Shown piece by piece: positions 6,171 to 59,782 of a DNA stretch of 64,000 bases (position 1 is its first letter; every line of letters starts with the position of its first letter). The stretch lies in contig CM059427.1 of the NCBI GenBank assembly GCA_030390025.1, positions 208,382,001-208,446,000 of the forward strand, written 5' to 3'. The notes under the pieces are model-generated. The model ran no database searches, was not told where the DNA came from, and worked only from the letters and a program-made list of their open reading frames with translations. Position numbers and translations under genes: made by a program. Source of the stretch: Squalus acanthias. Lineage: Eukaryota.

Positions 6171-6644
6171 GTGACAATCTGTGAGTGGAGTGCAGAGTGC
6201 GCTCAGAGCTTCTGAGAGTAATGCACGGGATACCAAAAGGTATGGTCTTTCCCCTTTACTATCCCGTCATTGCAGCTATCGGCGTTCCAGGTAAAGTATT
6301 GGAGTTAGTTACTACTTATTGGTATCATTGGCTAACTGTATCACTGCTCCTATTTACGGGGAACGCTTGTCCCCTTTACCTGTATCTTTTCTGCCGTTTC
6401 ATGATATATTTTATCTCCTTTAACTGAAGCATTTCCCCCTTTGACAGTATAATTCCTCCCCCTTTACCGCGATAATTTCTTCCCTTTCTCGGCATAATTT
6501 CTTCCTTTTAACAGAATCACTGCCTAGTTTGAGTGCCTGATTCTGCAATATGTGTTTTAATGAGTTTTCAACAGAGCCGCCTCTTCAGCGGTACCAGTCC
6601 ATTTGCTCCGAGTGATGTTTTATTGAAATACATCAGTAGATGTC

Positions 6645-22140: not shown

Positions 22141-22524
22141 TACAGCGAACTTGGCAGTGATTGTGATCCTGTCCCGAGGACGGTGCGGTCTCTCCAGATG
22201 TATCAACCTATACCTGTTGTCCATGGCGGTGACGGATCTCCTGGTCATTATCATCGCTGTGATATTTAACCGGATTGTTGATATTTATTTTCCAGTTAGT
22301 TTCCTGTGCATCACTCCGGTCTGTTGTCTCCGTTTTGCCCTAATCTATGCAGCCAGAGATAGTTCTGTCTGGGTAACGGTCGCTTTCACCTTTGATCGAT
22401 TTGTCGCCATTTGTTGCCTGAAGCTGAAAACAAAATATTGCACCGAAAAAACAGCGGTGGTTATAGGAACGGTCAGTGCCGTGAGCTGTTTAAAAAATAA
22501 CATATTTTATTTTATATATGAACC

Positions 22525-25500
22525 GGGTAGGCCCAAAGAGGCGGCGTTCCTGGGTGGAGCGACAGCGGCAACGCGGCGGCAATAAAAGTCGGCAGCGACC
22601 AGGAAGGCTTACCAATCTGAGCCCCGAGAGTGGGAGAGAGAGAGGTAAAAAATAATCAAAGTGTGACGTCAGCAGAAAGCAGGTAAGTGATTGGTTGGTG
22701 AGTATTTCTCTTTTTCTCCTTTTTCCAAACTTATATTTTGTGGTTCATAGTTTCTAGTTTTTTGTGGTGTAGCGGCGACAGTTGGTAAACAAGGGCCCTA
22801 TATAATTTAATTATAGTATAATTGTGGGATTGATTTGATTTAATTTAAGTTCAATGAATTAAAGGGTAAGTCATGGCAACACAGCTCGGCGCTGTGGTAT
22901 GCTCCTCCTACGCTATGTGGGAAATCGGGGACACTTCCTGTGTCCCTGACGACCATATGTGCAGGAAGTGTATCCAGCTGCAGCTACTGGCAGACCGCAT
23001 TGTGGCGCTGGAGTTGCGAATGGATACCTACTGGAGCATTCGCGATGCTGAGGACCTCGTGGATGGCACGTTTAACCAGTTGGTCACACCGCAGGTAAAG
23101 GTTGCACAGGCAGAAAGGGAATGGGTGAACACCAGGCAGAGTAGTAGGCGCAGGCAGGTGGTGCATGAGTCCCGTTGTGGACATCGCCCTCTCAAACAGA
23201 TATACCCCTTTGGATACTGTTGAGGGGGATGGCTTATCAGGGGAAGGCAGCAGCAGCCAACTTCCTGGCACCAGGGTTGGTTCTGCTGCACAGGACGGGA
23301 GGAAAAAGAGGGGTAAAGCTATAGTGTTAGGGGATTCTATTGTAAGGGGAATAGATAGGCATTTCTGCGGCGGCAGACGAGACTCCAGGATGGTGTGTTG
23401 CCTCTCTGGTGCTAAGGTGAAGGATCTCTCAGAGCGGCTGCAGAGCATTTTGGAAGGGGAGGGTGAACAGCCAGTTGTCGTGTTGTATACAGGTACCAAC
23501 GATATAGGTAAAAAAGGGGATGAGGTCCTAAAAGCTGAAGATAGGGAGTTAGGAGGTAAATTAAATAATAGGACCTCAAAGATAGTAAACTCAGGATTGC
23601 TACCAATGCCTCGTGCTAGTCAGAGTAGAAATAGAAGGATATTTCAGGTGAATACGTGGCTAGGAGAATGGTGCAAGGGGGAGTGATTCAAATTCCTGGG
23701 ACATTGGAACCGGTTCTGGGGGAGGTGGGACAAGTACAAATCGCACGGTTTGCACCTGGGCAGGATCGGGACCGATGTCCTTGGGAGAATGTTTTCTTGT
23801 GCTCTGGGGGAGCGTTTAAAGTAAAATGGCAGGGGGTTGGGAACATGAGCAGGGAGACAGAGGAAAGCGAAACAAGGATAGAAGCAAAAGTCAGGAAGGA
23901 AAAAAACAACGGTGTCAGTCAGAGAAATCAAGTGTTTTAATCAAACGTGGCCACAGAAAATAACAATTCTAAAAGGTCTAAGAGCGTTAAAAAAACAAGC
24001 CTGAAGGCTTTGTGTCTTAATGCGAGGAGCATTCGTAATAAGGTGGATGAATTAGCGGCGCAAATAGAGGTAAACGAATATGATATGATTGGGATTATGG
24101 AAACATGGCTCCAGGGTTACCAAGGCTGGGAACTCAACATACAGGGGTATTCAATATACAGGTAAGATAGGCAAAAAGGAAAAGGAGGTGGGGTAGCATT
24201 GCTGGTTAAGGAGGGGATTAACATAATTGTAAGGAAGGATATTAGCTCTGATGATGTGTAATCTGTATGGGTAGAACTGAGAAATACCAAGGGGCAGAAA
24301 ACGCAAGTGGGAGTGGTGTATAGACCCCCAAACAGTAATACGGAGGTTGGGGATGGCATTAAAAGGGAAATTAGAGAAGCGTGCAATAAGAGCACAGCAG
24401 TTATCATGAGCGACTTTAATCTACATATAGGTTCGGCTAACCAAATTAGTAACAATAATGTGGAGGAGGAATTCCTGGAGTGTATACGGGATGATTTCCT
24501 GTAACAATATGTCGAGGAACAAACTAGAGATCAGGCCATGTTAGACTGGGTTTTATGTAATGAGAAAGGATTAATTAACAATCTCTTTGTGCGAGGCCCC
24601 TTGGGTCGGAGCGATCATAATGCGATAGAATTCTTCATTAAGATGGAGAGTGAAGTAGATGAGTCAGAGACTGGTGTCCTGAATTTAAATAAAGGAAACT
24701 ACGATGCTATGAGGCGCGAGTTGGGTAGGATTGATTGGGGAATGTCACTCAAATGGTTGACGGTGGATAGGCAATGGAAAACTTTCAAAGATCGCATGAA
24801 TGAACTACAGAATTTGTTCATCCCAATTTGGCATAAAAATAAAACAAAAAAGGTGACTCAACCGTGGCTAACAAAGGAAATTAGGGACAGCATAAGATCC
24901 AGGGAGAGGACATATACATTGGCCAGAAAAAGCAGAAAACCTGAGGATTGGGAGCAGTATAGGATTCAGCAAAGAGGGACAAAGGGATTAATTAAGAGGG
25001 GGAAAATAGAGTATGAGAGTAAGCTTGGAGGGCACATAAAAACTGACTGTAAAAGCTTTTAGAGATATGTGAAGAGAAAAAGATTGGTGAAGTCAAGCGT
25101 AGGTCCCTTGCAGTCAGAATCAGGGGAATTTATAATGGGGAAAAATAATTGGCAGACCAATTAAATACATACCTTGGTTCTGGCTTCACAAAGGAGGACA
25201 CAAATAACCTCCCAGAGATTTCGGGGAACATAGGGTCTAATGAGAGGGAGGAACTGAAAGAAATCAGTATTGGTAGGGATATAGTGTTCGGGAAATTGAC
25301 GGGATTGAAGGCCGATAAATCCCCAGGGCCTGATAATCTACATCCTAGGGTACTTAAGGAAGTGGCCCGAGAAATAGTAGATGCATTGCTGGTCATCTTC
25401 CAAAATTCTATAGACTCTGGAACAGTACCCATGGATTGCAGGGTAGCTAATGTTACCCCACTATTCAAAAAAGGTGATGGAGAGAAAACGGGGAATTATA

Positions 25501-32542: not shown

Positions 32543-35500
32543 TCATTTAAATAATTTACCAATTAGACTCAGTGGATATTTCACCCCATTATTTAACTCC
32601 TCTCTGAATTTACTCTGGGTACCTGCATAAATAAACGGGTTGATGCAGGAACTCAGAAGCTGAAGCATAAATCCGCTTTCCTCCAGAATAAAATTCGATT
32701 CCTTGAAATTGGAACCGGAGAAGTAAGTAACGTTCGCAATCCGGACATAGAGGAAAGTTAAAAGATACAACAAATATAAAAGTATGAAACTGCCCGAGAT
32801 ACAGAAGAGTAAAACCATGGAATTTCTCCGCTTCTCCATCTCTGGGTCACTTTGATTCTCTCCACTGCTGTGGGCCCGGAGTCTCCTGCGGGCTCTACTG
32901 GCCGCTAGAATGTGTCTGACGGTCAGAGCATTGAGCAGCAAAATCAGAATGAATGGGAGACACGGGTTTAAAATGCAATTAATCCAGTCAAACGCGGCCC
33001 ATGCAGGTGAGGTATAAAATATTAATTTTACACTGCAGAACCAGGGTATGTTGTTAATTGTGTACAAAGGTTCATATATAAAATAAAATAATGCATTTTT
33101 GATGCAGCTCACGGCACAGACCGTTCCTATAACCACCGACATTGTTTTCTCGGTGCAATATCTTGTTTTCAGCTTCTGGCAACAAATGGCCGCAAATCGA
33201 TCAAAGGTGAAAGCGACCGTTACCCAGACAGAACTGTCTATGACTCCAAAAATTATCGCAAGTTTCAGACTACATACCGGAGTGAGGGACAGGAAACTGA
33301 ACGGGAAATAAATACCAGCAATGCGGTTTAATATCACAGCAGTGATACTGACCAGGAGATCCGTCACCGCCATGGACAAAAGGTACCGAGTGATACATCT
33401 GGAGAGACCGCACCTTCCTCGGGGCAGGATCACAATCACTGCCAAGTTAGCTGTAACAGAGAGAGAGAGAGAAACAGAGCGTGAGAGAGGGAGAGAGAGT
33501 GAATGTGTGTGAGAGAGGGAGAGTGAATGAGTGTGGGTGAGAGGGAGCGAGAGTGAATGTGTGTGAGAGAGAGGGAGAGAGTGTAAATGTGAGTGAGAGA
33601 GAGGGAGAGAGAGTGAATGTGTGAGAGAGAGGGAGTGTGAATGAGTGTGAGTGAGAGGGAGCGAGAGTGAATGTGAGTGAGAGAGAGGGAGAGAGAGTGA
33701 ATGTGTGAAGAGAGAGGGAGAGAAGGGTATGTGTGTGAGAGAAAAGTGAGAAGTCGCACAACACCAGGTTATAGTCCAACAGCTTTATTTGAAATCACAA
33801 GCTTTCGGAGCGGCTGCTCCTTCGTCAGGTGACAAAGGAGCAGCCGCTCCGAAAGCTTGTGATTTCAAATAAAGCTGTTGGACTATAACCTGGTGTTGTG
33901 CGACTTCTCACTTTTGTCCACCCCAGTCCAACACCGGCATCTCCGCGTCGTGTGTGAGATAGAGGGAGAGAGAGTGAATGTGTGCGAGAGAGAGGGCGAG
34001 AGAGTGAATGTGTGTGAGAGAGAGGGAGAGAGAGTGAATGTGTGTGAGAGAGGGGGAGAGAGAATGAATGTGCGTGAGAGAGAGGGCGAGAGAGTGAATG
34101 TGTTTGAGAGAGAGGGAGAGAGAGTGAATGTGTTGGAGAGAGAGGGAGATAGAGTGAACATGTGAGAAAGAGGGGGTGAAAAAGTGAATTTGTGTGAGAG
34201 AGAGGGAGAGAGAGTGAATGTGTGTGAGAGAAAGGGAGAGAGAGTGAATGTGTGTGAGAGAGAGGAAGAGAGAGTGAATGTGTGTGAGAGAGAGGGAGAG
34301 AGAGTGAATGTGTGTGAGGGAGAGGGAGAGAGAGTGAATGTCTGTGACAGGGAGGGAGAGAGAGTGAATGTGTGTGAGAGAGAGGGAGAGAGAATGTGTC
34401 TGTGAGAGAAGGAGAGAGAGTGACTGTGTGTGAGAGAGGGAGAGAGAGTGAATGTGTGTGAGGAAGAGGGAGAGAGAGTGAATGTGTGTGACAGAGAGGG
34501 AGAGAGAGTGAATGTTTGTGAGAGAGTGGAAGAGAGAGTGAATGTGTGTGAGAGAGAGGGAGAGAGAGTGGATGTGTGTGAGAGAGAGGGAGAGAGATTG
34601 AATGTGTGTGAGAGAGAGGGAGAGAGGGTGAATGTGTGTGCGAGAGAGGGAGAGAGTGTGAATGTGTGTGAGAGAGAAGGAGATAGAGTGAATGAGTGTG
34701 AGAGAGAGGGAGAGAGAGCGAATGTGTGTGTGAGAGAGGGAGAGAGTGTGAATGTGTGTGAGAGAGAGGGAGAGAGAATTAATGTGTGTGAGAGAGTGGG
34801 AGAGAGAATGAATGTGTGTGAGAGAGAGGGAGAGAGATTGAATGTGTGTGAGAGAGAGGGAGAGAGAATGAATGTGTGTGAGAGAGAGGGAGAGAGATTG
34901 AATGTGTGTGAGAGAGAGTAGAGTGGGTGAACGTGTGTGCGAGAGAGGGAGAGAGAATGAATGTGTGTGAGAGAGTGGGAGAGAGAGTGAATGTGTGTGT
35001 GAGAGAGGGAGAGAGAGTGACTGTGTGAGAGAGAGGGAGAGAGAGAGTGAATGAGTGATAGAGGTAGAGAGAGTGAATGTGTGTGAGAGAGAGGGGGGGA
35101 GACTGAATGTGTGTGAGAGAGAGGGAGAGAGAGTGAAAGTGTGTGAGAGCGAGAACAGAAATATTGCTGGTCCGAATCCCGGCAAGATCATCCGTTTGAC
35201 AGATTTAAGTGTGAAATGTACAGCTTTGACAAGTGACCCTAAGTTGAAAACAGATCCCTTACGCTTTGGGCACCTGTTTCGGTGCTGAAAATAATTCTCC
35301 AATTTAAAAATAAGACAGACCAGTGAAATCGGAATGTAAAATAATACAATGAAACAACGGAGAGCAAGAAAGCACCACGAAATCAACGCGTTGACATCAA
35401 ATACACAAAAAATAACATACCAGTAACGCAGTAGAGAAGATATTTAAGAGAGTAAATAATAAATACGATAATGAAAGGGGAGAGTAACAAGAAAATAGGA

Positions 35501-38500: not shown

Positions 38501-38826
38501 GAAAACACATATCAACAAATATTGGAGAACCAGTCACTCAGATTAGCTATTGATTCCGTTAAATGGGAGAAATGATTGCGGTAAAGGGGGAGGAAGAATA
38601 CTGTCAAAGGGGAGAAGTTATTCCGTTAAAGGAGATAAAATATACCATGAAACGCCGAAATTGATACAGTTGAAGGAGAGAAGCGACCGGTAAATAGGAG
38701 CAGTGATACAGTTAACCAATGATTTCCATAACTAGTAACTAACTCCAATACTTTACCTGGAACCCCGATAGCTGCAATGACAGGATAGTAAAGGGCAAAC
38801 ACCAGACCTTTTGCTGACCCGTGCAT
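32543..38826 (-). CDS. GPR139-like class A GPCR, copy B, intact (exon 1 38826-38757, exon 2 33450-32543; 325 aa)
   Basis: 70 + 908 bp with a canonical phase-1 GT/AG intron. Motifs YYPVIAAIGVPANL, LLSMAVTDLLV, SSVWVTVAFTFDRF and SSCINPFIY match the GPR139/142 family and its intron position. Candidate AATAAA at 31977-31982 and 31926-31931. Confidence 0.9.
33455..35150. repeat. GA/GT-rich ~30-bp minisatellite upstream of the exon 2 acceptor of GPCR B
   Basis: (GAGAGAGGGAGAGAGAGTGAATGTGTGTGA)n. Confidence 0.95.
33742..33949. mobile_element. Short palindromic Penelope terminal-repeat insertion with a hammerhead motif (33795-33832, minus)
   Basis: Perfect 81-bp inverted arms at 33742-33822 and 33835-33915. 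The minus strand reads TCAC-CTGACGA-A-GGAGC(AGCC)GCTCC-GAAAGCTT-GTGA. Confidence 0.82.
36530..37660 (+). mobile_element. L2-clade LINE 3' fragment (orthologue of 7785-8910)
   Basis: FHVYADDTQLY motif; homologous to the copy A intron element. Confidence 0.8.
37795..38245 (-). mobile_element. Penelope 3' fragment within the AT-rich minisatellite of the GPCR B intron
   Basis: Reverse complement of the Penelope tail with a degenerate hammerhead core. Confidence 0.75.
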
Positions 38827-38876
38827 TTCTCTCAGAAGCTCTGAGCGCGCTCTGCACTACACTCACAGATTGTCAC

Positions 38877-38893
38877 ATTTATACCTGATGTCA
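38877..38893 (-). promoter_or_regulatory. Putative core promoter of GPCR copy B (TGACATCA + TATAAAT)
   Basis: Identical to the copy A motif block. Confidence 0.65.
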
Positions 38894-39336
38894 GGCTCCA
38901 GGGAGATAATCAGATGGCTTGATCTTGTATATTAATTACACTAAATGAAACAAACAGATTAGTGCAGCCGCTGCCAGGATGGTGCTTATGTTTTGATGGA
39001 ATGGAATGTCTTTAAATAACTCTGACCCGGCTCTGAAGTGAAATACCCAGAGATTACAGTATGATCCCGGGTAGAGTTCTTCAAAAATATAATAAAACGC
39101 TGAATAAGTGATTGCCATGGTGAGAGTGAGCCTTCTACATGAGGAATTAATGGGTTTAAGCACCTTAGTACTGAGTTAAGTGATCTCAGCACAATCTATA
39201 ATTAACGAGAGAAACTCTGGTTCAGCAGCCGGAAAACGCGCCCAGGTACTCGCTCCTGCCCGGGTAAGCACCGTACACAGGCACTTGGCTCCAAATCCCT
39301 CTGAGAGTGTACGCCCACTTTAAAACAGGTGTCTCT

Positions 39337-40285
39337 ACATTCAGTGTGGACAGGTCCAGTTCAGCACAGTTACATTCAATGTGGACTGGTCCAGTTCAGC
39401 ACAGTTAGATTCATTGTGGACAGGTCCAGTTCAGCACGGTTACATTCAGCGTGGACTGGTCCATTTCAGCACGGTTATATTCAGTGAGGACAGGCCCAGG
39501 TCATAGAAACATAGAAACATAGAAACATAGAAGATAGGAGCAGGAATAGGCCATTCGGCCGCTCGAGCCTGCTCCGCCATTCGATCAGATCATGGCTGAT
39601 CATCCAAACTCAGTACCCTGTACCTGCCTTCTCCCCATATCACTTGATACCTTTAGCTTTAAGAAATATATCTAACTCATTCTTGAATATATTTAATGAA
39701 TTGGCCTCAACTACCTTCTGTGGTAAAGAATTCCACAGGTTCACCACTCTCTGAGTGAAGAAATTCTTCCTCATTTCTGTCCTAAATTGCTTACCCCTTA
39801 TCCTTAGATTATGACCCCTGGTTCTGGACTCTCCGACCATCGGGAACATTCTTCCTGCATCTAGTTTGTCCAGACATGTCAGATTGTTATATGTTTCGAT
39901 GAGATCCCCTCTCATTCTTCAATACTCCAGCGAGTACAAGCCCAATCGACCCAATCTCTCCTCATATGTCATTTCTGCCAGGTCAGCACGGTTACATTCA
40001 GTGTGGCCATGTCCAGTTCTGCAGGGATGCATTCAGTGTGGACACGTCCAGTTCAGCACAGTTACATTCAGTGTGGACAGGTCCAGTTCAGCACAGTTAC
40101 ATTCAGTGTGGACAGGTCCAGTTCAGCACAGTTATATTCCGTGTTGACATGTCCAGTTCAGCACTGTTACATTCAGTGTGGACAGGTCCAGGTCAGCACG
40201 GTAACATTCAGTGTGGATAGGTCCAGGTCAGCACGGTTACAATCAATGTGGACAGGTCCAGTTAAGCGCGGTTGCATTTAGTCTG
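39337..40285. repeat. Inverted copy of the 35-bp satellite, interrupted by a CR1 3' fragment (39503-39975, minus)
   Basis: CATTCAGTGTGGACAGGTCCAGTTCAGCACAGTTA units on both sides of a CR1 piece with a (CATAGAAA)n tail. Confidence 0.92.
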
Positions 40286-42504: not shown

Positions 42505-42830
42505 AGCTGTGGTTCTGTGGGCAGCACTCTCGCCTCTGATTCAGAAGGTTGTGGGTTGAAGTCCCACTCCAGAGGCTTGAACACGAAAATCTAGGCTGAC
42601 ACTCCAGTGCAGTACTGGAGGAGTGCTGCACTCTCGGAGGTGCATTCTATCGAATGAGAATTTAAGCCGAGACCACAGCTGTTCTCTCAGGTGGACGTAA
42701 AAGATCCCACGGCACTATTTCGAACGAAGATCAGGGGCGTTATCCCCGGTGTCCTGACCAATATTTATCCCTTAATCAACGTCACTAAAACAGAATATCT
42801 GGTCATTAACACATTGCTGTTTGTGGGAGA
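42505..42830 (+). mobile_element. tRNA-derived Deu-domain SINE (SacSINE1-like); second copy at ~45440-45722
   Basis: tRNA-like head followed by the CTCTCAGGTGGACGTAAAAGATCCC...CCCCGGTGTCCTG..CAATATTTATCCC core. Confidence 0.8.
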
Positions 42831-42834
42831 CTAT

Positions 42835-43010
42835 TCGACAGGACAGTACGGGAAGGCATAGCGGTGACACTGAATTGTAGTCTTACAGCAACAGATACAT
42901 ACCCTGAGCTTTTCTGGTACCGGCAGCTTCCCGGTCGTGCTCCGGCAAAAGCTGAGAGTTTCTGGGGCGGCGCTGTCAGGTGGCGCCATGTATTACTGCG
43001 CTCTGAGACC
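42835..43010 (+). pseudogene. T-cell receptor V-alpha/delta segment pseudogene
   Basis: VREGIAVTLNCSLTATDTYPELFWYRQLPGRAP, then a deletion/frameshift, then KLRVSGAALSGGAMYYCALRP. The leader and FR1 start are replaced by a SINE. Confidence 0.82.
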
Positions 43011-43049
43011 CACAGCTGCACAGCTCCGTGCTCGTCCTGTACATAAACT
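43011..43049 (+). promoter_or_regulatory. 23-bp-spacer recombination signal sequence
   Basis: CACAGCT + exactly 23 nt + ACATAAACT, directly after the YYCALRP codons. Confidence 0.85.
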
Positions 43050-44822
43050 GCGGCAAACTGTGGGTAAATAGAACATCCCGCCTGTGATTGTATGACTAGG
43101 ACGGTTACTGTCAGGACAGAATATCCCCACAGGGCATTTCCCAACAGCTCTGAATAGAGGAGTAAGATTTTAGATATTATTCATTCTATAGTGAGAGATG
43201 AACACGAGGAAACCCCCGCAGGTTTAATAGCCCATCGCTACCGTGTAATCTGTGTTCAAATTCAAGTTTCCCCTTTTCACTGCCCGTGTATTTTTTTTTC
43301 ATTGTCACTGCACTTAAACCAGCACAGAAATCTGCAGCTTTGCTTAGGTTTTGATTGTATTCAAAGGGCTCTAAACAGTCCCTTTTCTGAGCGATGATTT
43401 AATTTCTGTCGGTGTGTGAAGGTTCACCGGGAGCACTGACTTCACTCTCCTGCAACATTCGTGTTTACACGGAGCTATCCACTCCGTCGGGTAGATGTCA
43501 TCTGGTCGCTACTTCTAGTGGCATAGTGAATGCATGCTAAGAGAATGAATGCCGTTTCTACTAAACTAGCGATCGTACGAAATTTTCCGCTCTGTTTGGG
43601 ATGTCGCTACGACAGATAGACCAGATAAAATCTTCACCTTGTGTGTCCCCAGCAGAAGGTTATTCAGTAAGAGAAGAGAGGAAATCTTCACCTTGTGTGT
43701 CCCCAGCAGAGAGAATGACCCCAATAATTCCAATGCATGTATCAAACAATTCTCAATATCAGAGACACTTATGCATATTAAAACTTAGAATCTTAATTTT
43801 TAGCAGGTTTCAGGAGGTCACATTGAGGATAAGATTAGTAACCGATGAACAAACACTAACGGACTAATAATCTGCAAGGACAGACATTGTGTGCTCTAGA
43901 CACCGGGCCAGATAGTCAGAAGACCGACTCAACACAAGGCTAATAGAGACGGTATCAGAAAAGATGAGATAGTGAGCTACAAACCGTTTAAAGAACAATG
44001 CACAAAGACTAGATAACGTCGTGCAGAATCACTAAAGATAATGATATAATTTACAAGATGAATTGATGGGTTAACGTGTTATGTATTAATTAAAAATAAC
44101 CAGAAGGTGTTGACATGTTGCCTTCACGTTAGCAAGACGTTGCTAAGACTATAACAGGCACAGCACACAAAAGATCAAAAAACCTGAAAGATACGAGCTT
44201 GAGGCAATCAAGGAACAAGATGTCAACGCTGCTCACATTAGGAGCGGGTAATATTACTTCTATTGTATCTGTGGCCTTAGCTGGTAAGATTTTTAGTAAT
44301 CTGACTTATTAACTGTGCTTTGACGTGTACTTAATAAAAATATTTAATTGTCAGACCGTTTTGGCAAAATATATTTCTGAACGTCTGACACGGGTAAGTC
44401 GTTAACATTATCTTCACCGAATTGAAGGAAAAAATACCGGGGACTAAGTCTGATTTATTCCACTCGATAACAGCAAATCCCCTGGAATCACCCGGCCGCC
44501 GATCTCTGCCTGTGTTATACAGGAGTTCACACACAGAGTCGGCCATTAACCACTGAACTAAGGTTACTGGAAATAAGGTCACCCAGCAGCTGCTCTGGGA
44601 CTTGCTTATCAGCAACTAAGTAATTTAAAATCGTTTTGTACTCCCAGAAATCACTCGACTTAAATTGGTAAGTTCACCAGTCCTCAGTGAACAGATTCTC
44701 CAGCCTGTCTCCGTCTCACTCGATGGTCCTTCGGTAAAAAAAAATCGAAAGTTCGGTCACTTCTGCAAATTCACAATCAGGTATAAGTTGATTTGGTGAG
44801 AAGTGTGAAAATTCATTCTCAC

Positions 44823-46427
44823 CTAACAAAAATCCAACGAACTCAGTTTTGAATATTTCAATTGACCTCCAGCCTCAACAGCTTTTTGGGGGAGATAATT
44901 CCAGATTTCCATTATTCTTTGTGTGAAGGAATCCTTCCTGACATCACCGCTGCACGGCCTAGCTTTAATTTTATGGTTATGATCCTTGTTCTGGACTCCC
45001 GGACCAGAGGAAATATTTCCTCTATACCAACCCAATCAATTCGATTAATCAACTTAAACACCTCAATTAGATCACCTCTTAATCTTCTATACTCAAAGGT
45101 ATACAAGCCTATTCTGTGCAACCTCTCCTCATTATTTAACTCTTTTATCCGCGGTATCATTCTGGTAAACCTGCACTGTAGCCCCTCCAATGACAGTATA
45201 TCCTTCCTGATGTGTGGAGCCCAGAATTGAACTCAGTTCTCTGAATAGGGTAGATGCACTTTCTAGCAGTGGGTTCCTGGACAGTTACCAGAAAAGGGTT
45301 CCAGACACCTACTGCCGCTCCGAAAATGATCAGCCAACTCAGGCTAAACCTGAGACCAAGGACATCTCACTCACTGTCTGACACCGGAGCAGAGGTAAAC
45401 ATTCTTTGCCGAGGTTATTAAATCCTGAACCGTGAGGAATCCTGATTCAGAAGATCGTGGGTTCAAGTCCAACACTAGAGACTTGAACACAAAATGAAAA
45501 TCGACACTCCCAGTTCAGTACTGAGGGAGTGCTGCACTGTCGGATGTGCTGTCATTCACATGAGATTTTAAACCGAGGATCCGCCTGCTCTCGCAGGTGG
45601 GCGTAATAGATCGCATGGCTCTATTTCGAGGAAGAGCAGGGGAGTTCTCCCCGGTGTCCTGGCCAATATTTATCCCGCAACGAACATTATTAAACAAAAA
45701 GATTATCTGATCATTATCACAGTGCGATAAGAACATAAGAAACAGGAGCAGGATTCGTACAATCGGCCCCTCGAGCATGCTCCGCCATTCAATAAGATCA
45801 TGGCTGATCCAATCTTGGCCTCAACAACACTTTCCCGCTATCTCCCCATACCCCTTGACTCCCTTGTAGTTCAAATGTCTGTCAATCTCCGCCTTAAATG
45901 TATTCAATGACCCAGCCTCCACAGCTCTCTGGGGTAGAGAATTCCAAAGATTCTCGACCCTCTGAGAGAAGAAATTCCTCCTCATCTGCGTCTTAAATGG
46001 GCGACCGCTTATTCTGAAACTACGCACCCTAGTTCTTGATACCCCCACTAGGGGAAACATCCTCTCAGCATCCACCCTGTCAATCCCCCTCAGAATCGTG
46101 TATGTTTCAATAAGATCACCTCTCATTCTTCGAAACTCCAATGAGTTTTGGCCCAAACTGCTCAACCTTTAATCATACGTCAACCCCTTCATACCAGGAA
46201 TCAACCTAGTGAACCTTCTCTGTACTGCATCTAATGCAAGTATATCCTTCCTTAAATATGGAGACCAAAACTGTACGCAGTACTCCAGGTGCGGTCTCAC
46301 CAGCGCCCTGTAAAGTTGCACCAAACTTCCCTACTTTTATACTCCATACCCCTTGCAACAAATGCCAACATTCCATTAGCCTTCCTAATTACTAGCTGTA
46401 CCTGCATGCTAACTTTTTGTGTTTCAT
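44823..46427 (-). mobile_element. Two CR1 3' fragments (44823-45240 and 45727-46427) flanking a SINE
   Basis: RRLRGDLIE / RRMRGDLIETY and RNFFSQRVENLWNSLP motifs. Confidence 0.85.
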
Positions 46428-46528
46428 GTACTAGAAATAGCTCGGTGCTTTTTACTAATTTCAACAAAAGTCCTGATTGAGATTAGCGCCCAGAATGAAC
46501 TGAAACTTCCCTGGGTTGTGTCTCTTAC

Positions 46529-46843
46529 CCGGAGATCTGGTGATGTCGTGGCTTTGGGTGACTCCTTCATGAGTGACCTGGCAGGTATAGACCGAGCCGG
46601 TGAACCATTCCCCGGCAGGGACTGTCAGCAGACTGGTCGCCGAGAAGTTCCCGTTGACTTCACAGACGGGAGAGGTGACGAAGCCCGAATCAATGCGTTG
46701 TCCATTCTTCAGCCAATTCAGGGTCAGTGAGTCTGGACGGAAATCCATGATTGAACACACGACGGTTGGAAATCTGCTGCTGGTGATTTGTTCACTGGAA
46801 CTCAGCGTGAGGATAACAGTTGAAGGGACGTCCGGTTTAGAAC
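46529..46843 (-). pseudogene. Immunoglobulin heavy chain IgM constant exon Cmu2 (open frame, orphan)
   Basis: 315-bp exon encoding [40 protein letters not shown]...[27 protein letters not shown]...YTCQVTHE, matching shark Cmu2. Donor GTAAG is intact; acceptor is GAG. Confidence 0.88.
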
Positions 46844-46969
46844 CTCCAAAAGAGCACATGTTAATGAAATTCTTTGCAAAATAAATGATTAAAAAATGCA
46901 TAGTGTCCTTATATTTTAACAGGTCCCTTACTGTCAGGCTACATTAACCTGGCACTTCAAGAGACCAGA

Positions 46970-47445
46970 AGTGTTCACAGTGCACCAACTGTGATATGGG
47001 GACCAGAGCTGTGCACTGTATTCTATATGTGATATGGAGACCAGAGCTGTGTACTGTATTCTAAGTGTAATTTGGAGACCGGAACGCTACACAGTATAGT
47101 AAGTGAGATATGGAGACCAGAGCTGTGCACAGTATTCAAAGTGTGATATGGAGATCTGAATCTGCACAGTACAGTAAGCGTGTTATGGAGACCAGAATTG
47201 TGCACAATACTTTAAGTATGATGTGGAGACTAGAACTGTGCACAGTGTTGTAAATGTAATATGGAAGCCAGAATTCTGCACAATATTCTAAGTGATATGG
47301 AGACCAGAACTGTGCACATTATTGTAAATGTGGTATGGAGACCAGAACTGTACACAGTACTGTGTGATATGGAGACCAGAACTGTGCACAGCATTCTAAA
47401 TGTGATATGGAGACCAGAAATGTTCACAATACTCAAAGTGTGGAC
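46970..47445. repeat. 38-bp minisatellite derived from a CR1 ORF2 segment, in the Cmu1-Cmu2 intron
   Basis: ATATGGAGACCAGAACTGTGCACAGCATTCTAAATGTG units; the reverse strand encodes an HLEY..QLWSPY-like peptide. Confidence 0.85.
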
Positions 47446-47520
47446 TAACCAAGTTTCTATAAAAGTTGAACATAACTCCTCACCTTATTACAGTTTCCCC
47501 CATGTACCCACAACACTAAA

Positions 47521-47820
47521 CTGCCATTGTGATGTTCCAGACCGACTCACATCGCCGAACCACGCAGTAGATAGTGCTGCTCCCTACCTCTGATTCGGTG
47601 ATCGTTAATTGGCTGCACAGGGTGTAGGTTCCCCTCTTGTTGAGCACTGGCGGGTAAGTCTTCAATCCAGTGGTGATCGGCTCTTTATCTTTCTTTCAGG
47701 AAAGGCTGGTGATTTCGGGTGATTAGTCTATCGCCAAACAGCCGACGGTCACGGAGCTGTCAGTGTTGGGTTGTTCACAGGATGAGAACAGGGCGTAGAG
47801 GGTGGGAGGAGACGGTTTTG
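47521..47820 (-). pseudogene. IgM constant exon Cmu1, disabled
   Basis: TTTCCCAG acceptor, then [87 protein letters not shown]. Stops at 47723-47725 and 47696-47698; the donor reads TT instead of GT. Missed by the ORF track. Confidence 0.9.
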
Positions 47821-49497: not shown

Positions 49498-52400
49498 TGT
49501 AGGGGGTGGTAATGGGGTCAACCTTCACCTCTGACTCAGTGAGCAGTTGGAATCGCTCCCACGACCCTGGTTCCCAGACGTTGGACTTATTTAGGGGTTG
49601 TGAACAAAGATGCAGTAGACAACAGGTTCTGATGAAAGAATTTTGACTTTATTAAAAGAAAAAGGGAACAAACTTAAAACAGACTTAATACTTAAACACA
49701 GGTTGTGGAACACACAGTACAGCGCGAGAGAAAGACAACATACAAAAAAAACCTTATTCCTCCCAAAAATCCCACAATCTAGCTAGGTTTTGGTTTCAGG
49801 AGATCAGGGATAATGCTCACCAAACGAATCCTTGACAGTTGAGAGTTAGGGTTTAGAGTCTGTGCAGTAAAAGGTTTCGTAAGGCCCTTGTTGCCGCGAG
49901 GTGTCCAATGGTTACTGAGCCAGTCTCTCTGGTTTCTTCTTGTGAGCTAGTCTGTTGGTATTTTCTGTTAAGTTTTTTGTTCAGTTTTAAGTGTATTTCT
50001 GCTGAGTAGTTCATACCTCATTACTAGATGGAGAGCGCTCATTGCTGAGTTGCAGGTGAGTGTTTTTGTTAAGTTTTTAAGTTTATTTCGCGGGCTTTTT
50101 TACAGGGGCCAGTGTCGGGAGCGGACAGAGCAGCAGCACTGTGAGTAGTTAAACTCACTTTTGCGGGCTTTTTACAGAGTCCAGTGTCGGGAGCGGAGAG
50201 AGAAGCAGCACAGTGAGTAGTTAAACTCACTTTCATGGGCTTTTTAAATAGGCCAGCGTCGGGAAAGGGCCCTTGAGAATATCATTTAGTTGAAGTGAAA
50301 TTGGTGGGATTCATTTAATTAAATTTTAATTAATTAATTAAAGGGTAAGTCATGGCAGGAGAGCTCCGCCCCGTGATGTGCTCCTCCTGCTATATGTGAG
50401 AAACCAGGCACGCTTCCTGTGTCCCTGACGACCATGTGTGTGGGAAGTGTACCCAGCTGCAGCTATTGATAGACCGCATTGCGGCGCTGGAGCTGCGGAT
50501 GGATGCATATTGGAGCATTCGCGACGCTGCGAACGTCGTGGATAGCACGTTTAGCGAGTTGATCACACCGCAGGCAAAGGGTGTACAGGCAGGAAGTGAA
50601 TGGGTGACCACCAGGCAGAGTAAGAGGTGCAGGCAGGTAGTGCAGGGGTCCCCTGTGGCCATCCCCCTCTCAAACAGATATATCACTTTGGATACTGTTG
50701 GGAGGCTGAATTATCAGGGGAAGGCAGCAGCAGCCAACTTCCTGGCACCATGGGTGGCTCTGCTGCATCAGGCTGGGAGGAAAAAGTGTGGAAGAGCTAC
50801 AGTGATAGCGGACTCTATTGTAAGGGGAATAGATAGACGTTTCTGCGGCCGCAAACAAGACTCCAGGATGGTGTGTTGCCTCCCTGGTGCAAGGGTCAAG
50901 GACGTCTCGAAGCGGCTACTGAAAATTTTGGAGGGGGAGGGCGAACAGCCAGTTCTCGTGTTGCACATAGGCATCAACGATATAGGTAAACAACGGGATG
51001 AGGTCCTAAAAGCAGAATATAGGGTATTAGGAGGTAAATTAAAAAATAGGACCTCAAAGGTACTAATCTCAGGATTGCTAACAGTGCCACGTGCTAGTCA
51101 GAGTAGAACTAGGAGGCTATTTCAAATGAATACGTGGCTAGAGGAATGGTGCAAGGGAGAGGGATTCAAATATCTTGGACATTGGAACCGGTTTTGTGGG
51201 AGGGGGGACCAGTACAAACGGGGCAGTCTGCACCTGCGCAGCACCGCGACCGATGTCCTAGGGGGAGTGTTTGCTAGTGCTGTTGGGGAGGGTTTAAACT
51301 AAAGTGGCAGGGTGTTGGGAGCCTGAGCAGGGAGACAGAGGAAATGGAAACAAGGATGAAAGCAAAAGACAGGAAGGAGAAAAACAAAAGTAGAAGGCAA
51401 AGAACTCAACGGTTTAAATCAAACATGGTCAGAGCAAATAATAATTCATATAGGTCTGAGAGCGTTAAAAAAAACAAGCCTAACGGCTTTCTGTCTTATT
51501 GCAAGGAGCATTCGGAACAAGGTGGATGAATTAGCTGCGCAAATAGAGGTAAATGAAGACGATTTGATTGGGATTGCAGAAACATGGCTCCAGAGTGGCC
51601 AAGGCTGGGAACTCATCATCCAGGGGTATTCAATATTTAGGAAAGATAGGCAAAAAAGAAAGGGAGGTGGGGTAGCATTGCTGGTTAAAGAGGGGATTAA
51701 CACAATTGAAAGGAAGGATATTAGCTCTGATGATGCAGAATCTGTATGGTAGAACTGAGAAATAACAAGGGGCAGAAAACTTTAGTGGGAGTGGTATATA
51801 GACCTCCAAACAGTAATGCGGAGGTTGCGGACGGCATTAAAAGGGAAATTAGAGAAGCATGCAGTAAGGGCACAGCAGTCATCATGGGTGACTTTAATTT
51901 AAATATAGATTGGGATAAGCAAATTAGTAAAAATACTGTGGAGGAGGAATTCCGAGAATGTTTACGGGATGGTTTTCTGGAAGAATATGTCGAGGAACCA
52001 ACCAGAGATCAGGCCATCTTAGTCTGGGTATTATGTAACGAGAAAGGATTAATTAGCAATCTTGTTGTACGAGGCCCCTTGGGTCAGAGTGACCATAATA
52101 TGATAGAATTCTTCATTAGGATGGAGAGTGAAGTAGTTGAATCAGAGATTAGGATCCTGAATTTAAATAAAGGAAACTACGATGGTATGAGGCGCGAATT
52201 GGGTAGGATTGATTGGGGAATGTCACTCAAAGGGTTGACGGTGGATAGGCAATGGCAAACATTCAAAGACTGCATGGTTGAACTACATAATTTGTTCATC
52301 CCAGTGTGGCATATGAATAAAACAAAAAGTGTAATGCAACCGTGGCTAACAAGGTAAATTAGGGATAGCATAAGATCCAAGGAGAGGGCATATAAATTGG

Positions 52401-55148
52401 CCAGCAAATTCGGTAACCCTGAGGATTGGGAGCAGTTTAGTATTCAACAAAGGAGGACAAAGGGATTAATTAAGAAGAAGAAAATAGAATATGAAAGTAA
52501 GCTTGCAGGGAACATAAAAACTGACTGTAAGAGCTTTTATAGATATGTGGAGAGAAAAAGATAAGTGAAATCAAGTGTAGGCCCCTTGCAGTCAGAAGCA
52601 GGGGAAGTTATAATGGGGAAAAAAGAAATGGCAGACCAATTAAATGCATATTTTGGTTCTGTCTTCAAAAAAGAGGACACAAATAACCTCCCAGAGATGT
52701 TGGAGAATATAGGTTCTGATGAAAGGGAGGAATTGAAAGAAATCAGTATTAACAGGGAAATGGTGTTACGGAAATTGACGGGATTGAAAGCCCATAAATC
52801 CCCAGGGCCTGATAATCTACATCCTAGGGTACTTAAGGAAGTGGCCCTAGAAATAGTAGATGCATTGCTGATCATCTTCCAACATTCGATGGAATCTGGA
52901 ACTGTTCCCATGGATTGGAGGGTAGCTAATGTTACCCCACTATTCAAAAAGGGTGGTGGAGAGAAAGTGGGGAATTACAGACCGGTAAGCCTGACATCGG
53001 TAGTGGGGAAAATGCTAGAGTCCATTATAAAGGATGTAATAGCTGAGCATTTGGAAAACAGTGACAGGATCGAACAAAGTCAACATGGATTTACAAAAGT
53101 TAAATCGTGCTTGACTAATCTACTGGAAATTTTTGAGGAAGTAACTTGGAAAATGGATAAGGGAGAACCAGTATATGTGGTGTATTTGGACTTTCAAAAG
53201 GCTTTCGATAAGGTCCCGCATAAGAGATTAGCGTGTAAAGTTAAGTCACGTGGGACTGGGGGCAAGGTATTGACTTGGATAGAGAACTGGTTGGTGGACA
53301 GAAAGCAGAGAGTAGGAATTAATGGTTATTTTTCCAAGTGGCAGGCAGTGACTAGTGGGATACCGCAGGGTTCGGGCCTTGGAACACAGCTATTCACAAT
53401 ATACATTAATGATCTGGATAAGGGAACTAAATGTAATATCACCAAGTTTGCAGATGACAAAAAGCTGGGTGGGCGTGTGTGCTCCGAGGAGAATACCGAG
53501 AAACTCCAGAATGATTTGGACAGGTGGGTTAGTGGGCAGAAGCGTGGCAGATGCAATATAACGTGGATAAATGCGAGGTTATCCACTTTGGTGTCAAAAA
53601 AAGAAAGGCAGACCATTATCTGAATGGCAATAGATTGGGAGAAGGGGAAGTGCAACGAGACCTGGGTGTCCTTGTGCACCAGTCGCTGAGAGTAAGAATG
53701 CAGGTGCAGCAGGCGGTGAAGAAAGCAAATGGTATGTTTGCGTTCAGAGCGAAAGGGTTTGAGTATAGGAACAGGGATGTCCTGCTGCAGTTGTACAGGG
53801 CCTTGGTGAGACCACACCTTGAGTACTGTGTGCAGTTTTGATCGCCTTATCTGAGGAAGGATGTTCTTGCCATGGAAGGAGTTCAGCGAAGATTCACAAG
53901 GCTGATACCTGGGATGGCAGGAATGACATATGAGGAGAGATTGGGTCGATTGGGTTTGTACTCGCTGGAGTATTGAAGAATGAGAGGGGATCTCATCGAA
54001 ACATATAAAATTCTGACAGGTCTGGACAAACTAGATGCAGGAAGAATGTTCCCGATGATCGGAGAGTCCAGAACCAGGGGTCATAATCTAAGGATAAGGG
54101 GTAAGCCATTTAGGACAGAAATGAGGAAGAATTTCTTCACCTAGAGAGTGGTGAACCTTTGGAATTCTCTACCACAGTAGGTAGTTGAGGCCAAGTCATT
54201 AATTATATTCAAGAATGAGTTAGATATATTTCTTAAAGCTAAAGGTATCAAGGGATATGGGGAGAAGGCAAGTACAGGGTACTGAGTTTGGATGATCAGC
54301 CATGAACTTATCGAATGGCGGAGCAGGCTCGAGCGGCCGAATGGCCTACTCCTTCTATGTTTCTTTGAAGTTGTTGGCCTTCTTTCCTCCTCCTCCTCCT
54401 CGTGGCTTGTGGTGTCTATGCTGGAGCAGAGCTGAGAGAGACAGAGCTGTGCGAACGTTGAGAGCGTTGTCATCGAGTCCAGAGAGAGAATCTTGGGACA
54501 TTAGGCCCCCAAAACCCCTTACTAAAACGGTTTCCTTTAGATTTCAAATGGGCTCTGTTTATTCCATTGTCTTAGTTTTGGCGGGCTTGTCAGTTTCGAT
54601 GGCTTAAACTTGGTGTTAAACATGTCCTGATAGCTTCCGATTTAGGCAAGGCCTTTATCTACGCCCCAAATCTTGTCCCTATTGTCTTCGGTTTTTTTAG
54701 GGCTTTAAATCTGTCCTGTGGATACCTGGTTGATTGGTTTTTGATGAAGTAAATCGGGGTACTAAATGTTTTATTGATTTCCGGCTTCTGGTATCCTGTG
54801 TGGGCCTGGGAATTTCAAAAGAGGTCTTGGATTATTCATATTTCGATGTGTGTGTCAGGCTTTTCGGTTTGTCTCTTCCTCCTTGGAAGGAAGGCAGTGT
54901 AAACACATTACCAGAAAGCTTGATTGTGCCCCAATACCCAAAGCTGTCCACTGCCTGGTCACGCTCCCCGGAAGCCTGTCGGTGTCTGTGAAAGGTGTAT
55001 TTCCCAACAGTAAGATTCAAAAGATCATTTTCCTCAGGGTTTTTCTTCCCTGATCTTTAAAAATGTTCAAAACTGAGGTTTTATTTTAACTCAAATCACT
55101 TCACTTAGGGTTCTGTTCGAGTTTCTGGGGGATTTTGCGAAGCCTACA
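49498..55148 (-). mobile_element. 3' LTR of ERV copy 2, split by a CR1 (parts 49498-~49957 and ~54366-55148)
   Basis: Both parts align colinearly to the 5' LTR at 59786-61066. Confidence 0.88.
49958..54365 (+). mobile_element. Full-length CR1 LINE inserted in the LTR (ORF1 ~50352-51302; ORF2 to ~54285), disabled
   Basis: Zn-finger/esterase ORF1, APE and RT motifs and a CTATGTTTC tail. Close relative of 22525-26906. Confidence 0.92.
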
Positions 55149-55461
55149 TTCCCCTCTTTGATACTAAACCTGAATTAGTATCATTAACAGGTCAGCAAAA
55201 TTTCTGATCCCCGAAAACCAACCTTCTCCTGTATTACCTAAACTAAAAATCTAAACATACATTTCCCTTTTAAATGTGATTTTTCAGGTACATACAGGTA
55301 AGAATCAATCTTTATTTCACATCCAAGCACGGAGGGGGTCCGACACCCCTGCACAGCTTGGAAAAACACATCATACACATTATAAAAATGACACAACACA
55401 CACACAAAATGTTTTATTAAAAAGACAAAATCAAGGTTAGTTCCAGCCCTGGCCATAGCCT

Positions 55462-56556
55462 TTATTTTGATGCATTTCCCAAGTCCCTTCGTGTCTGGAA
55501 ATGAGCTCCCCATCCCTTCCTTGCACTTTTACACAACAGGTAGAGAACTATCCCGAGCTGGCAGACCACCAAAAGATGGGAAGCTATCCTGATCCAGGAA
55601 GGCACCTCTATATTCTGCAAAATATCCCACCAGGGTGGAACTACTATATCCAAAATCTCTGCCCCTATTTCAACTGTTTTCTGTGAAATCCCTACAGCTT
55701 TAAATAGGATGGTAAGATGTTCGGGTAGAGGGGGACTTTTAGATCCAAAGTAAGTCCAATACTTTTGCAGGTTGGTGACGTTTTCTGTTACAGTGAGGTG
55801 AACAGTGGAGGGTTCAGAAATGGGGACAATCCGTTCCTGGGCCACTTAAACTTCTGCCTCGGGTTTAAAGCAGAAACTGCTGTCACTTACCGGAAGTATC
55901 CATGCTTGTAGTGTGACGCACCTGTGGTGACACAATATGTCCCACCCCCTATATATGCTACCTGTGGGGAAACATGGCCGTGTGCCATTACCTCCATGGT
56001 ACAGTTTATAGGTCGTGCGCCAGCAGCTTTAAACCCGCACTATGGTTTAGAATAGGCGTTCAAGTGCTGGGGACACAGGACTCCCACCACTTATCCCAAC
56101 ACACACCCACTCCTCCTTGGGTCCCTATGATTATCCGGTAGGTGCCGTTCCCTAATCTTTCCCAGTCGGCTTTATGGTCCCCTTCTTCCCTGCTCAGCTT
56201 CCTGAGCCACCACCATCTATTCAGGGGATTTCGTCCCTTACAGGTAAGGCACACACGCCTCCCCTCGGTGACACTGACCCTTGTGGCAACGACCAGTATT
56301 CTGGTTATGGGAGGGTGGCCTCCCCGTACGTGAACCCGGGCTGGTTGGAGTATTTAGTAGAGTTGGACCCCAGCCACCCTGGCCACTTTCCCTCGTGGAA
56401 GTAGATGGCGAGCTCCTCCACTCCCCGCTCGCCACCCCCTGCGGTGACGACTGGTGCTTTCTCTCCCGAGCACCCATAGATGTGGGAGTCCTCTACTTCA
56501 CCTCGGTCACCGATGCTCACCCCTACCAGGGCGAGCAGGAGCAGAACCCTTGTCAT
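55462..56556 (-). pseudogene. env: env of ERV copy 2, internally deleted
   Basis: Signal peptide MTRVLLLLALVGVSIG. At ~56080 the frame jumps into LCPQHLNAYSKP*CGFKAAG...QVAYIGGGTYCVTT, then VVPPWWDILQNIEVPSWIRIASHLLVVCQLGIVLYLLC, homologous to copy 1. Confidence 0.88.
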
Positions 56557-56753
56557 TCCGAATTCCTTTCTGTAGGGGCACACACAAAACATATATCCAT
56601 GTCCCAGAAAGATTCTCTGGCTGGATAATTAATCGAGCCCTTAAACTTAAAACTCTACAAATAACTAAACTAATGATAACCAATAACTACCAAAACTGCA
56701 ATTACTTAAAACCGAAAATGTGTACATTTGCCGCCTGTCTCCGGACGGCCAGG

Positions 56754-57458
56754 TTAAATCCTGTTTAGCCTTTGCCTTATGTGGCCTCTGGATGGCTTGT
56801 ACACCTGGGTGTAGTGCGGTCTGTACCACCGGACCCAGAAGGCCTTCATCAAAACCGCTGGGGGTATCTTAACATCCCAGCTGAGTCCTGTGCTGCAGCA
56901 CACTACCCCCTTTGGTGTGGCTGCAGCGCCCTCGTTCATATCTGTGGGGTCCTCCCAGCCTGAGGCTGCAGGCTGGGGACCCTTCTCTCTCTCTTCTCCC
57001 TGTACTCCCTCTCCTGTGAAACCCTCACTGTTGGAGGCTGTAGGCTGGGGATCCTCAACTTTAGAGCGCTCCCTGCTCTTGGGCGCTCTCTTTCGGGATG
57101 CAACCGTCTTTGGGTGGGGCCCTTAAACTGATACACCTGTGGCCACAGTCGCCTTGGCTGTAGTGTCCGGGGAGACCTTCTTAGGGTTCTGGCCACTGGG
57201 GGTGTGCTTGAGTCCCAAATAATCGAGGAGGGTTCTCTTTTGTGAAACAGCACATTGTTCCTCCAGCTGCAGCTTGTGCGTCTGCCACAGCTGCTGCTGG
57301 CTGAGGATTTCTAACTTGGGGGCAGTCCACCTTTGCTGGCTGTTCCCTTTTCTCGAGTTCAAGCAGTTTACACCGGTCAATCTCTCACTCGAGGGTTCTC
57401 TGGGGTTCCAACAGCAGCCGATGTTTCTAGTGCTGGCTCCCCAGGTTACTGGCTGCAT
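56754..57458 (-). pseudogene. Putative accessory ORF between pol and env (~235 codons, one in-frame stop)
   Basis: ORFs 57123-57458 and 56754-56939 are in the same frame, and the 61 intervening codons are open. Confidence 0.5.
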
Positions 57459-57519
57459 GCCAGTGACTCTGTTTTAAAATCTCGTCCTCTGCCCTCAACG
57501 GACATTCTAGGGACTCCCC

Positions 57520-57964
57520 ACTCTCTCCCTCTCTACCAGGACGGCCTTAAGGACGGTGCCTGGGCTTGGACCTGCTGTAAATCCGGAGGCAAAGCTACCC
57601 CCTGCATGCCTCCCTTGTCCCGGATTGCAGCTACCGGTCCTGCTTTATAGGGATCCCAGAACTCTCCTTCCCTGGCCCCCTGCTAGGCCAAATTGTTGGC
57701 CTTTTGGTTACCCTCCCACGTGGTATGGAGGGATCCTAAATCTATGTCCAATGTTTTGGACATTGCCCCAGCCTGCTCGTTCCCTGTGAACCCCATTGAA
57801 CTGTACGGGACCCCGTTAGACCTGGGTGAATTGTTCAGGTCTTCTGAATGGACCACAGTGCTGGCAGCTCCGGTGTCCACCAAACATCTCAACTGCAGAG
57901 TCTCCACCCCCATCTTACCATCGTATCCAGGGGAACACAGGTAGACAGGCTGCACCGGTTCTAG
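57520..57964 (-). pseudogene. pol: pro-pol remnant: aspartic protease fused to the RNase H C-terminus and integrase N-terminal linker
   Basis: CLVDTGAASTVV...MGFTG, then WEGNQKANNLA*QGAREG (RNase H GNxxADxLA-like) and PDLQQVQAQAPSL. No RT or DDE core is present. Confidence 0.75.
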
Positions 57965-59711: not shown

Positions 59712-59763
59712 TCTTGTTCTCTCCTCAAAACCAGCATTTACTGCTTCACAACCCTTTCGCCAA

Positions 59764-59782
59764 AGTCCTGCCGCGGTCCCCA
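59764..59782 (-). promoter_or_regulatory. Primer-binding site complementary to the tRNA-Arg(UCG) 3' end
   Basis: TGGGGACCGCGGCAGGACT lies 3 nt from the LTR. It matches the vertebrate tRNA-Arg-TCG end AGTCCTGCCGCGGTCGCCA (recalled, not searched) with one mismatch. Confidence 0.8.

Follow-up and report, generated by a model that had tools for sequence, protein, structure and literature searches.

A decayed TCR alpha/delta-type V segment beside an IgM remnant and GPR139-like genes in Squalus acanthias

How did a TCR-type V segment come to lie a few kilobases from IgM constant exons on one side and from a receptor gene promoter on the other? The arrangement is found in a window of 64,000 nucleotides from Squalus acanthias (contig CM059427.1, positions 208,382,001 to 208,446,000), from which a preliminary description had reported a plus-strand TCR-type V with YYCALRP and a 23-RSS, about 3.5 kb from Cmu2 and Cmu1 on the minus strand and about 4 kb from a GPCR promoter. 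The identity of the V was borne out by its reading frames, its PDB matches and the placement of the RSS, and both distances held, with 3,480 nt from the end of the RSS to Cmu2 and about 3,950 nt from the start of the V to the TATA-like box of the GPR139-like gene B. The features of the antigen-receptor part are as follows.

42523..42829, plus strand: SINE, cut on its 3' side and joined straight onto the V fragment
42832..43010, plus strand: TCR alpha/delta-type V pseudogene, frameshifted, with the leader and the first ~13 profile positions missing
43011..43049, plus strand: 23-RSS, with heptamer CACAGCT at 43011, a 23-bp spacer and nonamer ACATAAACT ending at 43049
43050..44830, plus strand: low-copy V 3' flank, its first ~240 nt found joined to V and RSS in related-shark contigs, with no second copy in the window
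44830..46431, no strand assigned: stack of high-copy LINE/SINE fragments in which the V and IgM blocks join
46529..46843, minus strand: IgM Cmu2 exon, Pfam C1-set, with an open frame and its AG/GT sites in place
46961..47442, no strand assigned: 38-bp tandem repeat, about 13 copies, within the Cmu1-Cmu2 intron
47521..47820, minus strand: IgM Cmu1 exon, two in-frame stops, Pfam C1-set

A V pseudogene and an IgM stump

The V is read in two plus-strand frames, of which 42837-42944 covers the A'-B-C strands and 42946-43011 the E-F strands with the terminal YYCALRP. Between 42944 and 42946, about 30 internal codons are gone together with a frameshift (profile positions 48-77 of 98), and the W-to-C spacing is 82 nt, whereas 79 intact V domains picked by motif have a median of 171 nt. 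YYCALRP was the commonest ending in this motif-picked set (13/79). The V-set framework (Cys, Trp, Tyr-x-Cys) comes nearest to that of TCR alpha/delta; TCR alpha chains accounted for 17 of the 20 single-domain matches above threshold among the 60 PDB rows listed for the 5' half. The 3' half alone gave no significant match in the PDB, its weak matches being mainly to heavy chains; Pfam V-set was detected at E=0.001, under the curated cut-off, and a score of 0.88 for the 5' half against the Atlas is a mere lead. A homologue search with the V read across its break found none among 202 candidates. Lacking the leader exon and the complete open V exon of a functional TCR V gene, the segment is a dead one of TCR alpha/delta type; shark V genes are common to TCR alpha and delta, as stated in the part of PMC5931798 consulted.

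The RSS lies directly 3' of the V exon, starting 14 nt 3' of the second Cys codon, counted from that codon's first base, and retains CACAG and 7/9 nonamer bases. With up to two nonamer mismatches allowed, it was the only such site among 263 CACAG motifs on both strands of the window, against a background of 0.17 per 128 kb in 30 mononucleotide shuffles. It might still be cut by RAG, but any joint would be non-productive, as use of the RSS of a V without its leader and a third of its domain cannot yield a receptor. The 5' end of the V is severed by the SINE (junction ~42829), and loose contig ends at 42829 run on into ordinary SINE sequence. On the 3' side, the first ~240 nt of the flank are joined to the V and RSS in related-shark contigs, while the remainder of 43050..44830 could be a low-copy repeat of its own. 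Single contigs from two shark DNA runs contain the V end, RSS and flank (42952-43286 and 42961-43236), with 33-39 differing letters plus gaps. Position 42900 was covered by 13, 3 and 5 contigs in three runs, and the presence of several contigs in each run indicates that the V belongs to a V family. Around the internal V deletion, the joint and indel tables from shark contigs were swamped by repeats. In tblastn, 63532-63627 looked like a possible further V, but it was rejected, since this segment lies in a dispersed repeat and scores 1 bit on the V profile.

The IgM piece comprises Cmu1 and Cmu2 only and is dead. The stops in Cmu1 are TAA and TGA, and TT occupies its expected phase-1 donor position. 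The two exons are 71-78% identical to CH1/CH2 of horn-shark IgM (P23088 / UTD43067), the reference used here, and their identity with other CH domains is about 30%. Neither Cmu3 nor Cmu4 is present in the 46 kb of the window downstream, full-length IgM matching CH1 and CH2 only in tblastn, and no VH was found in the 16 kb upstream of Cmu1; the V profile, run over the whole window, detected the TCR-type V alone. These 16 kb are mostly mobile elements, so that VH and JH could lie past the window. The stump resembles the horn-shark IgM minicluster (VH-D-D-JH-Cmu1-4) in its CH1/CH2 exons and phase-1 boundaries, but it is without VH, Cmu3 and Cmu4, its Cmu1 contains stops and the donor is lost; it falls short of a functional minicluster with VH-D-D-JH, Cmu1-4, tail exons and open frames. 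Furthermore, the V (plus strand) and Cmu (minus strand) are convergent, so the V cannot splice to Cmu and no V-Cmu transcript is possible. One putative RNA run gave zero cover on the V and deep cover on Cmu2, the latter most likely from functional IgM paralogues and therefore saying nothing on the expression of this copy. The pseudogene state of both pieces was absent from the preliminary description.

GPR139-like genes and their probable link to TCR V segments

On the other side of the V, the window contains two GPR139-like genes.

6221..6290, plus strand: gene A exon 1, with a 35-bp satellite (3459-5698) upstream
22143..22525, plus strand: gene A exon 2, ending after about 128 codons; pseudogene
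32543..33450, minus strand: gene B exon 2, an intact 325-aa 7TM frame together with exon 1
38757..38826, minus strand: gene B exon 1, with a TATA-like box at 38876-38885
39336..40282, no strand assigned: 35-bp satellite upstream of gene B, interrupted by a LINE piece

Both are two-exon 7tm_1 genes that nest among RefSeq shark GPR139-like models, and gene B is 80-82% identical to models of horn shark and sevengill. At gene level, nothing sets gene B apart from the RefSeq shark expansion of 'probable G-protein coupled receptor 139', and what is added here is a link to the antigen-receptor region. Of the 120 top-ranking relatives of gene B, 81 come from horn shark, on 5 chromosomes, and by hand count 57 of these 81 lie on the chromosome of 59,489,666 bp. 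The same chromosome bears the model XP_067869829.1 with two TCR-V-type domains, whose accession number differs by 14 and 19 from those of the GPR139-like XP_067869843 and XP_067869848, an order that suggests physical closeness; this horn-shark link is a single V model, from the 20 of 150 V-type matches with names resolved. In a FastTree clade (support 0.895), genes A and B group with 56 of the 57 genes of the 59.5-Mb chromosome. However, the closest protein relatives of gene B are found on different chromosomes of horn shark, 62.8 and 83.8 Mb long, and with relatives on five chromosomes, the presence of GPR139-like genes nearby does not settle where the window lies. As the copies on the 62.8- and 83.8-Mb chromosomes nest within the 59.5-Mb clade, GPR139-like copies evidently disperse. 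In catshark, the sole GPR139-like match among the best 120 is on a chromosome of 133,841,611 bp, which is likely chr17 of PMC12227049 table S1, where AgRC genes reach 133.54 Mb.

A link between GPCRs and antigen receptors was not found in the literature searched, most subscription papers being outside its scope. By term search, G-protein-coupled receptors are unmentioned in PMC12227049 and its two supplementary files, and PMC10620051, PMC11979771, PMC7677710 and PMC8692893 gave nothing relevant. Of the proposal that such a linkage exists and reflects co-amplified cassettes, the linkage gains support in horn shark and is hinted at in catshark, whereas co-amplification as a cassette is not supported in the window. 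The new point is likely that a large GPR139-like family shares the antigen-receptor region in other sharks too, and the subfamily would be a long-standing neighbour of TCR V segments in sharks and not a passenger in one repeated cassette.

In the tetrapod TCR alpha/delta locus, expanded class A GPCRs, the olfactory receptors, likewise adjoin V segments (PMC3457774, in the part consulted). The shark genes differ from these in being two-exon GPR139-like models, and the parallel may reflect shared ancestry or convergence. We tentatively suggest, while considering it the less probable outcome, that the GPR139-like genes could be a resident spacer family of the AgRC, interleaved with its TCR V segments and IgM miniclusters, radiated from that chromosome and carried to others with dispersed IgM clusters, as a shark counterpart of the olfactory receptors at TCR alpha/delta. 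This link would weigh more than the relic itself. If true, it would provide a conserved non-immune marker family for the shark antigen-receptor complex and give a home locus to a family of hundreds of receptor genes that is so far undescribed. Public annotation would then also allow two questions to be tested, namely whether IgM clusters took flanking genes with them on leaving the complex, and whether arrays of GPCRs next to TCR alpha/delta V segments date to early jawed vertebrates.

Origin of the arrangement

Flajnik et al. (2025) described TCRalpha/delta-type V exons between IgH clusters in the elasmobranch AgRC (PMC12227049 section 6), and models of TCR alpha V and IgH alternate on bamboo-shark chr44 (PMC7677710 supplement 2). 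Like the window, the AgRC has TCRalpha/delta-type V between IgM clusters in both orientations, and pseudogene, C-only and V-less IgM clusters are among those given in PMC12227049 (the first two in table S1). The defining feature, a TCRalpha/delta V among IgH clusters, is represented here by one V beside one IgM stump; further marks of the complex are TCRalpha/delta C exons, IgW/IgNAR, PSMB5 and UrIg2 linked to it. Our data support the suggestion that the window either belongs to the TCRa/d-IgH region or was copied from it, and match the interleaving already published there; the relic is a further decayed example of this locus type. Unlike in the AgRC as published, the V and Cmu are merely 3.5 kb apart and both are dead, the great-white distances from TCR V to IgM in table S1 being longer (7-203 kb, for 10 IgM rows versus 9 hand-chosen V rows).

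The spacing of 3.5 kb likely arose when the 3' half of the IgM gene was deleted. Overall, we consider it probable that the V and IgM stump are decayed pieces of the AgRC, brought this close by that deletion, which would have run through repeats. TCR V segments, IgM miniclusters and GPR139-like genes would duplicate in one repeat-rich region by birth-and-death, and there may have been three deletions: SINE-to-V, inside the V and after Cmu2. On the 64 kb analysed, residence in the main AgRC is putative. Alternatively, a fragment with the V and Cmu1-2 may be an orphon, copied out of the complex to a different chromosome, where it decayed within a GPR139-like cluster, which we regard as rather unlikely. 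IgM clusters do occur on several chromosomes, bamboo shark having 37 of them on seven (PMC8692893; also PMC5192425, both in the parts consulted), the 62.8- and 83.8-Mb chromosomes of horn shark carry GPR139-like copies that nest within the 59.5-Mb clade, and the window holds a single V. However, one V per 64 kb agrees with the spacing in table S1 of PMC12227049, and the horn-shark GPCR subfamily is centred on the very chromosome that bears TCR V segments. The co-amplification proposed earlier, with the GPR139-like cassette, V and IgM piece as one duplicated block, is very unlikely. The V with its flank is multi-copy in related sharks and the horn-shark GPCR and V models are near each other in accession order, but cassettes A and B align from satellite to exon 2 only (81-85%), the satellite at 39336..40282 being the outer limit of their common sequence. 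Beyond it, 1400-3458 and 42830-44830 have no other match anywhere in the window and 40283-42530 matches dispersed repeats only; the upstream part of cassette A holds unrelated mobile-element-like sequence, which limits this comparison. Fused V-GPCR gene models were likewise absent, with 0/133 GPCR models carrying a V domain and 0/150 V-type models matching a GPCR.

A role of the V, its RSS and Cmu in an Ig-TCR trans-rearrangement, a chimeric transcript or as a conversion donor is highly improbable. Such trans-rearrangements occur in sharks (PMC12227049, in the part consulted), the RSS keeps its CACAG and most of its nonamer, and Cmu2 has an open frame and both of its splice sites. Nevertheless, the V without leader and about 30 codons, its frameshift, the two stops in Cmu1 and the convergent parts argue against a function. 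The TAILV and IgH-V to TCR-delta trans-rearrangements (via the same source) do reflect the same tight linkage of IgH and TCR segments, yet they pair an intact IgH-type V with TCR delta D-J-C and not a TCR V with Cmu, while the V of the window is of TCR type, broken and in convergent orientation to Cmu. Finally, an assembly artefact, or a V that is a non-TCR IgSF exon, is hardly credible. Repeats are very abundant in the region, and no contig crosses the V-to-Cmu junction or the whole stretch; against this stand the canonical position of the RSS, TCR alpha as the best matches and the V-RSS-flank contigs in other sharks.

A dead V segment beside an IgM stump

The V segment, its 23-RSS and the two IgM constant exons lie where the preliminary description had placed them:

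42832-43010, plus strand: V pseudogene of TCR alpha/delta type
43011-43049, plus strand: 23-RSS of this V
46529-46843, minus strand: Cmu2
47521-47820, minus strand: Cmu1

The RSS starts 14 nt downstream of the initial base of the second Cys codon and is the only site of comparable quality among the 263 CACAG motifs on both strands of the window; shuffled sequence gave a background of 0.17 such sites per 128 kb. TCR alpha chains accounted for 17 of the 20 single-domain PDB matches (among 60 matches listed), and the ending YYCALRP was the most frequent one, present in 13 of 79 V domains. Together with the RSS position, this upholds the identification as a TCR-type V, with alpha and delta not distinguishable. 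Searched by itself, the 3' half of the V yielded no significant PDB match and so adds nothing to the class assignment. In two DNA runs from sharks, single contigs carried the V end, the RSS and approximately 240 nt of flank together; in three runs the V was covered by several different contigs, so it belongs to a real V family. An Atlas match to the V is a lead only.

The V itself is a pseudogene. A 98-position profile, for which 79 V domains were picked by motif out of 150 proteins, aligns only at positions 14-47 and 78-98, in differing frames, and the Trp-to-Cys spacing is 82 nt compared with a median of 171 nt in the 79 domains. A SINE truncated at approximately 42829 directly joins the 5' end of the V, while contigs of other sharks continue there as normal SINE sequence. 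Further downstream, 43681-44018 shows only 2 differences in 312-338 bases to contigs from two runs of one related organism, with adjoining pieces only 85-90% alike; this near-identity may reflect either a young repeat or else a conversion tract.

Both constant exons were recognized by 71-78% identity to horn-shark IgM (range for the two exons together). Cmu1 carries two stops and reads TT at the expected donor position; Cmu2 has an open frame and both splice sites. Full-length IgM queries, which might miss short J or transmembrane exons, found no VH, Cmu3 or Cmu4 in the window. Since the upstream region (48.7-63.2 kb) consists mostly of a nested LTR element and LINEs, VH and JH may sit beyond the window. 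A V-Cmu transcript is ruled out because the two are convergent. Tested as a functional V and as a functional IgM cluster, this copy fails on both counts.

Origin and precedent of the juxtaposition

The proposed distances were confirmed, with 3,480 nt from the RSS end to Cmu2 and approximately 3,950 nt from the V start to the TATA-like box of the GPR139-like gene B. Approximately 100 nt beyond Cmu2, the intron enters a 1.6-kb block of LINE and SINE fragments of high copy number (44830-46431), and the V flank begins on the far side. In the simplest account, a deletion through these repeats would have removed Cmu3 onward and left the 3.5-kb gap, and two further deletions would have broken the V. 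RAG might still cut at the RSS, yet no receptor would result.

Interleaving of Ig and TCR segments is already known. According to PMC12227049, IgM, IgW, IgNAR and TCRalpha/delta are linked in four elasmobranchs, TCR-type V exons sit between IgH clusters, and several IgM copies are pseudogenes or C-only (table S1). In the great-white part of that table, each of 10 IgM rows has the nearest of 9 hand-picked TCR-type V rows at a distance of 7-203 kb; on bamboo-shark chr44, TCR alpha V and IgH models alternate (PMC7677710, supplement 2 part 2). Of the interdigitated locus inferred earlier, the V beside an IgM piece is real and of this published type, but both are dead relics.

GPR139-like genes and the TCR V region

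The two GPR139-like genes, A (plus strand, exon 2 truncated) and B (minus strand, intact 325-aa frame), stand tail to tail. A 35-bp satellite lies upstream of each promoter (3459-5698 for A, 39336-40282 for B) and faces the same way with respect to its gene in both cases. Shared A/B sequence stops at this satellite, so V and Cmu fall outside the repeated cassette, in a comparison limited by unrelated sequence upstream of A. The suggested co-amplification of GPCR and antigen-receptor segments as one cassette is hence very unlikely.

With regards to linkage on a larger scale, 81 of the 120 best among 2,017 GPR139-like matches were horn-shark genes, distributed over five chromosomes (57/10/10/2/2, counted by hand). 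The 59.5-Mb chromosome with the 57 also encodes XP_067869829.1, a protein with two TCR-V-type domains and the only horn-shark record among the 17 of 150 V-type matches whose names were looked up. Two of the 57, XP_067869843/848, have accession numbers only 14 and 19 away. As LOC numbers in table S1 often follow positional order, this would point to a distance of a few megabases at most. A FastTree phylogeny of all 120 matches with A and B placed both in one clade with 56 of the 57, within which most copies from the 62.8- and 83.8-Mb chromosomes are scattered. The single catshark match among the best 120 is on a 133.84-Mb chromosome, probably chr17, which bears the elasmobranch antigen receptor complex (AgRC). 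Against linkage, a different horn-shark chromosome holds the top two matches of gene B. The window is shark-type DNA: all its IgM and GPCR relatives are chondrichthyan, and gene B shows a weak grouping with genes of sawsharks (support 0.63-0.76). A possible conserved GPR139-like and TCR V neighbourhood is a reasonable lead, suggested by chromosome sharing and accession order. That the family is a resident spacer family of the AgRC, radiated there and dispersed with IgM clusters, is possible but rather doubtful.

This link was not found in the literature searched, including term searches of PMC12227049, PMC10620051, PMC11979771, PMC7677710 and PMC8692893; subscription papers and one supplement may bear on it. 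Olfactory-receptor genes flank tetrapod TCR alpha/delta loci (PMC3457774), possibly in parallel to the shark GPR139-like neighbours.

Mobile elements and repeats

The two LTRs of an LTR element at 49498-61066 (minus strand) are approximately 90% alike; one (49498-55148) is interrupted by a 4-kb LINE, and the other spans 59786-61066. The internal frames of the element are broken, and inspection by eye showed no target-site duplication that matches. At 3-1406 (plus strand), a 468-aa open frame whose C-terminal part includes a hydrophobic stretch is envelope-like by eye, had no Pfam match above cut-off and is 78% like part of the element's interior (55766-56078). Two 4-kb LINE copies (22800-26874 and 50279-54353) are 87% alike, one of them directly past the break in gene A, and a microsatellite in the gene B intron contains a 188-bp near-perfect palindrome (33735-33921, 96%).
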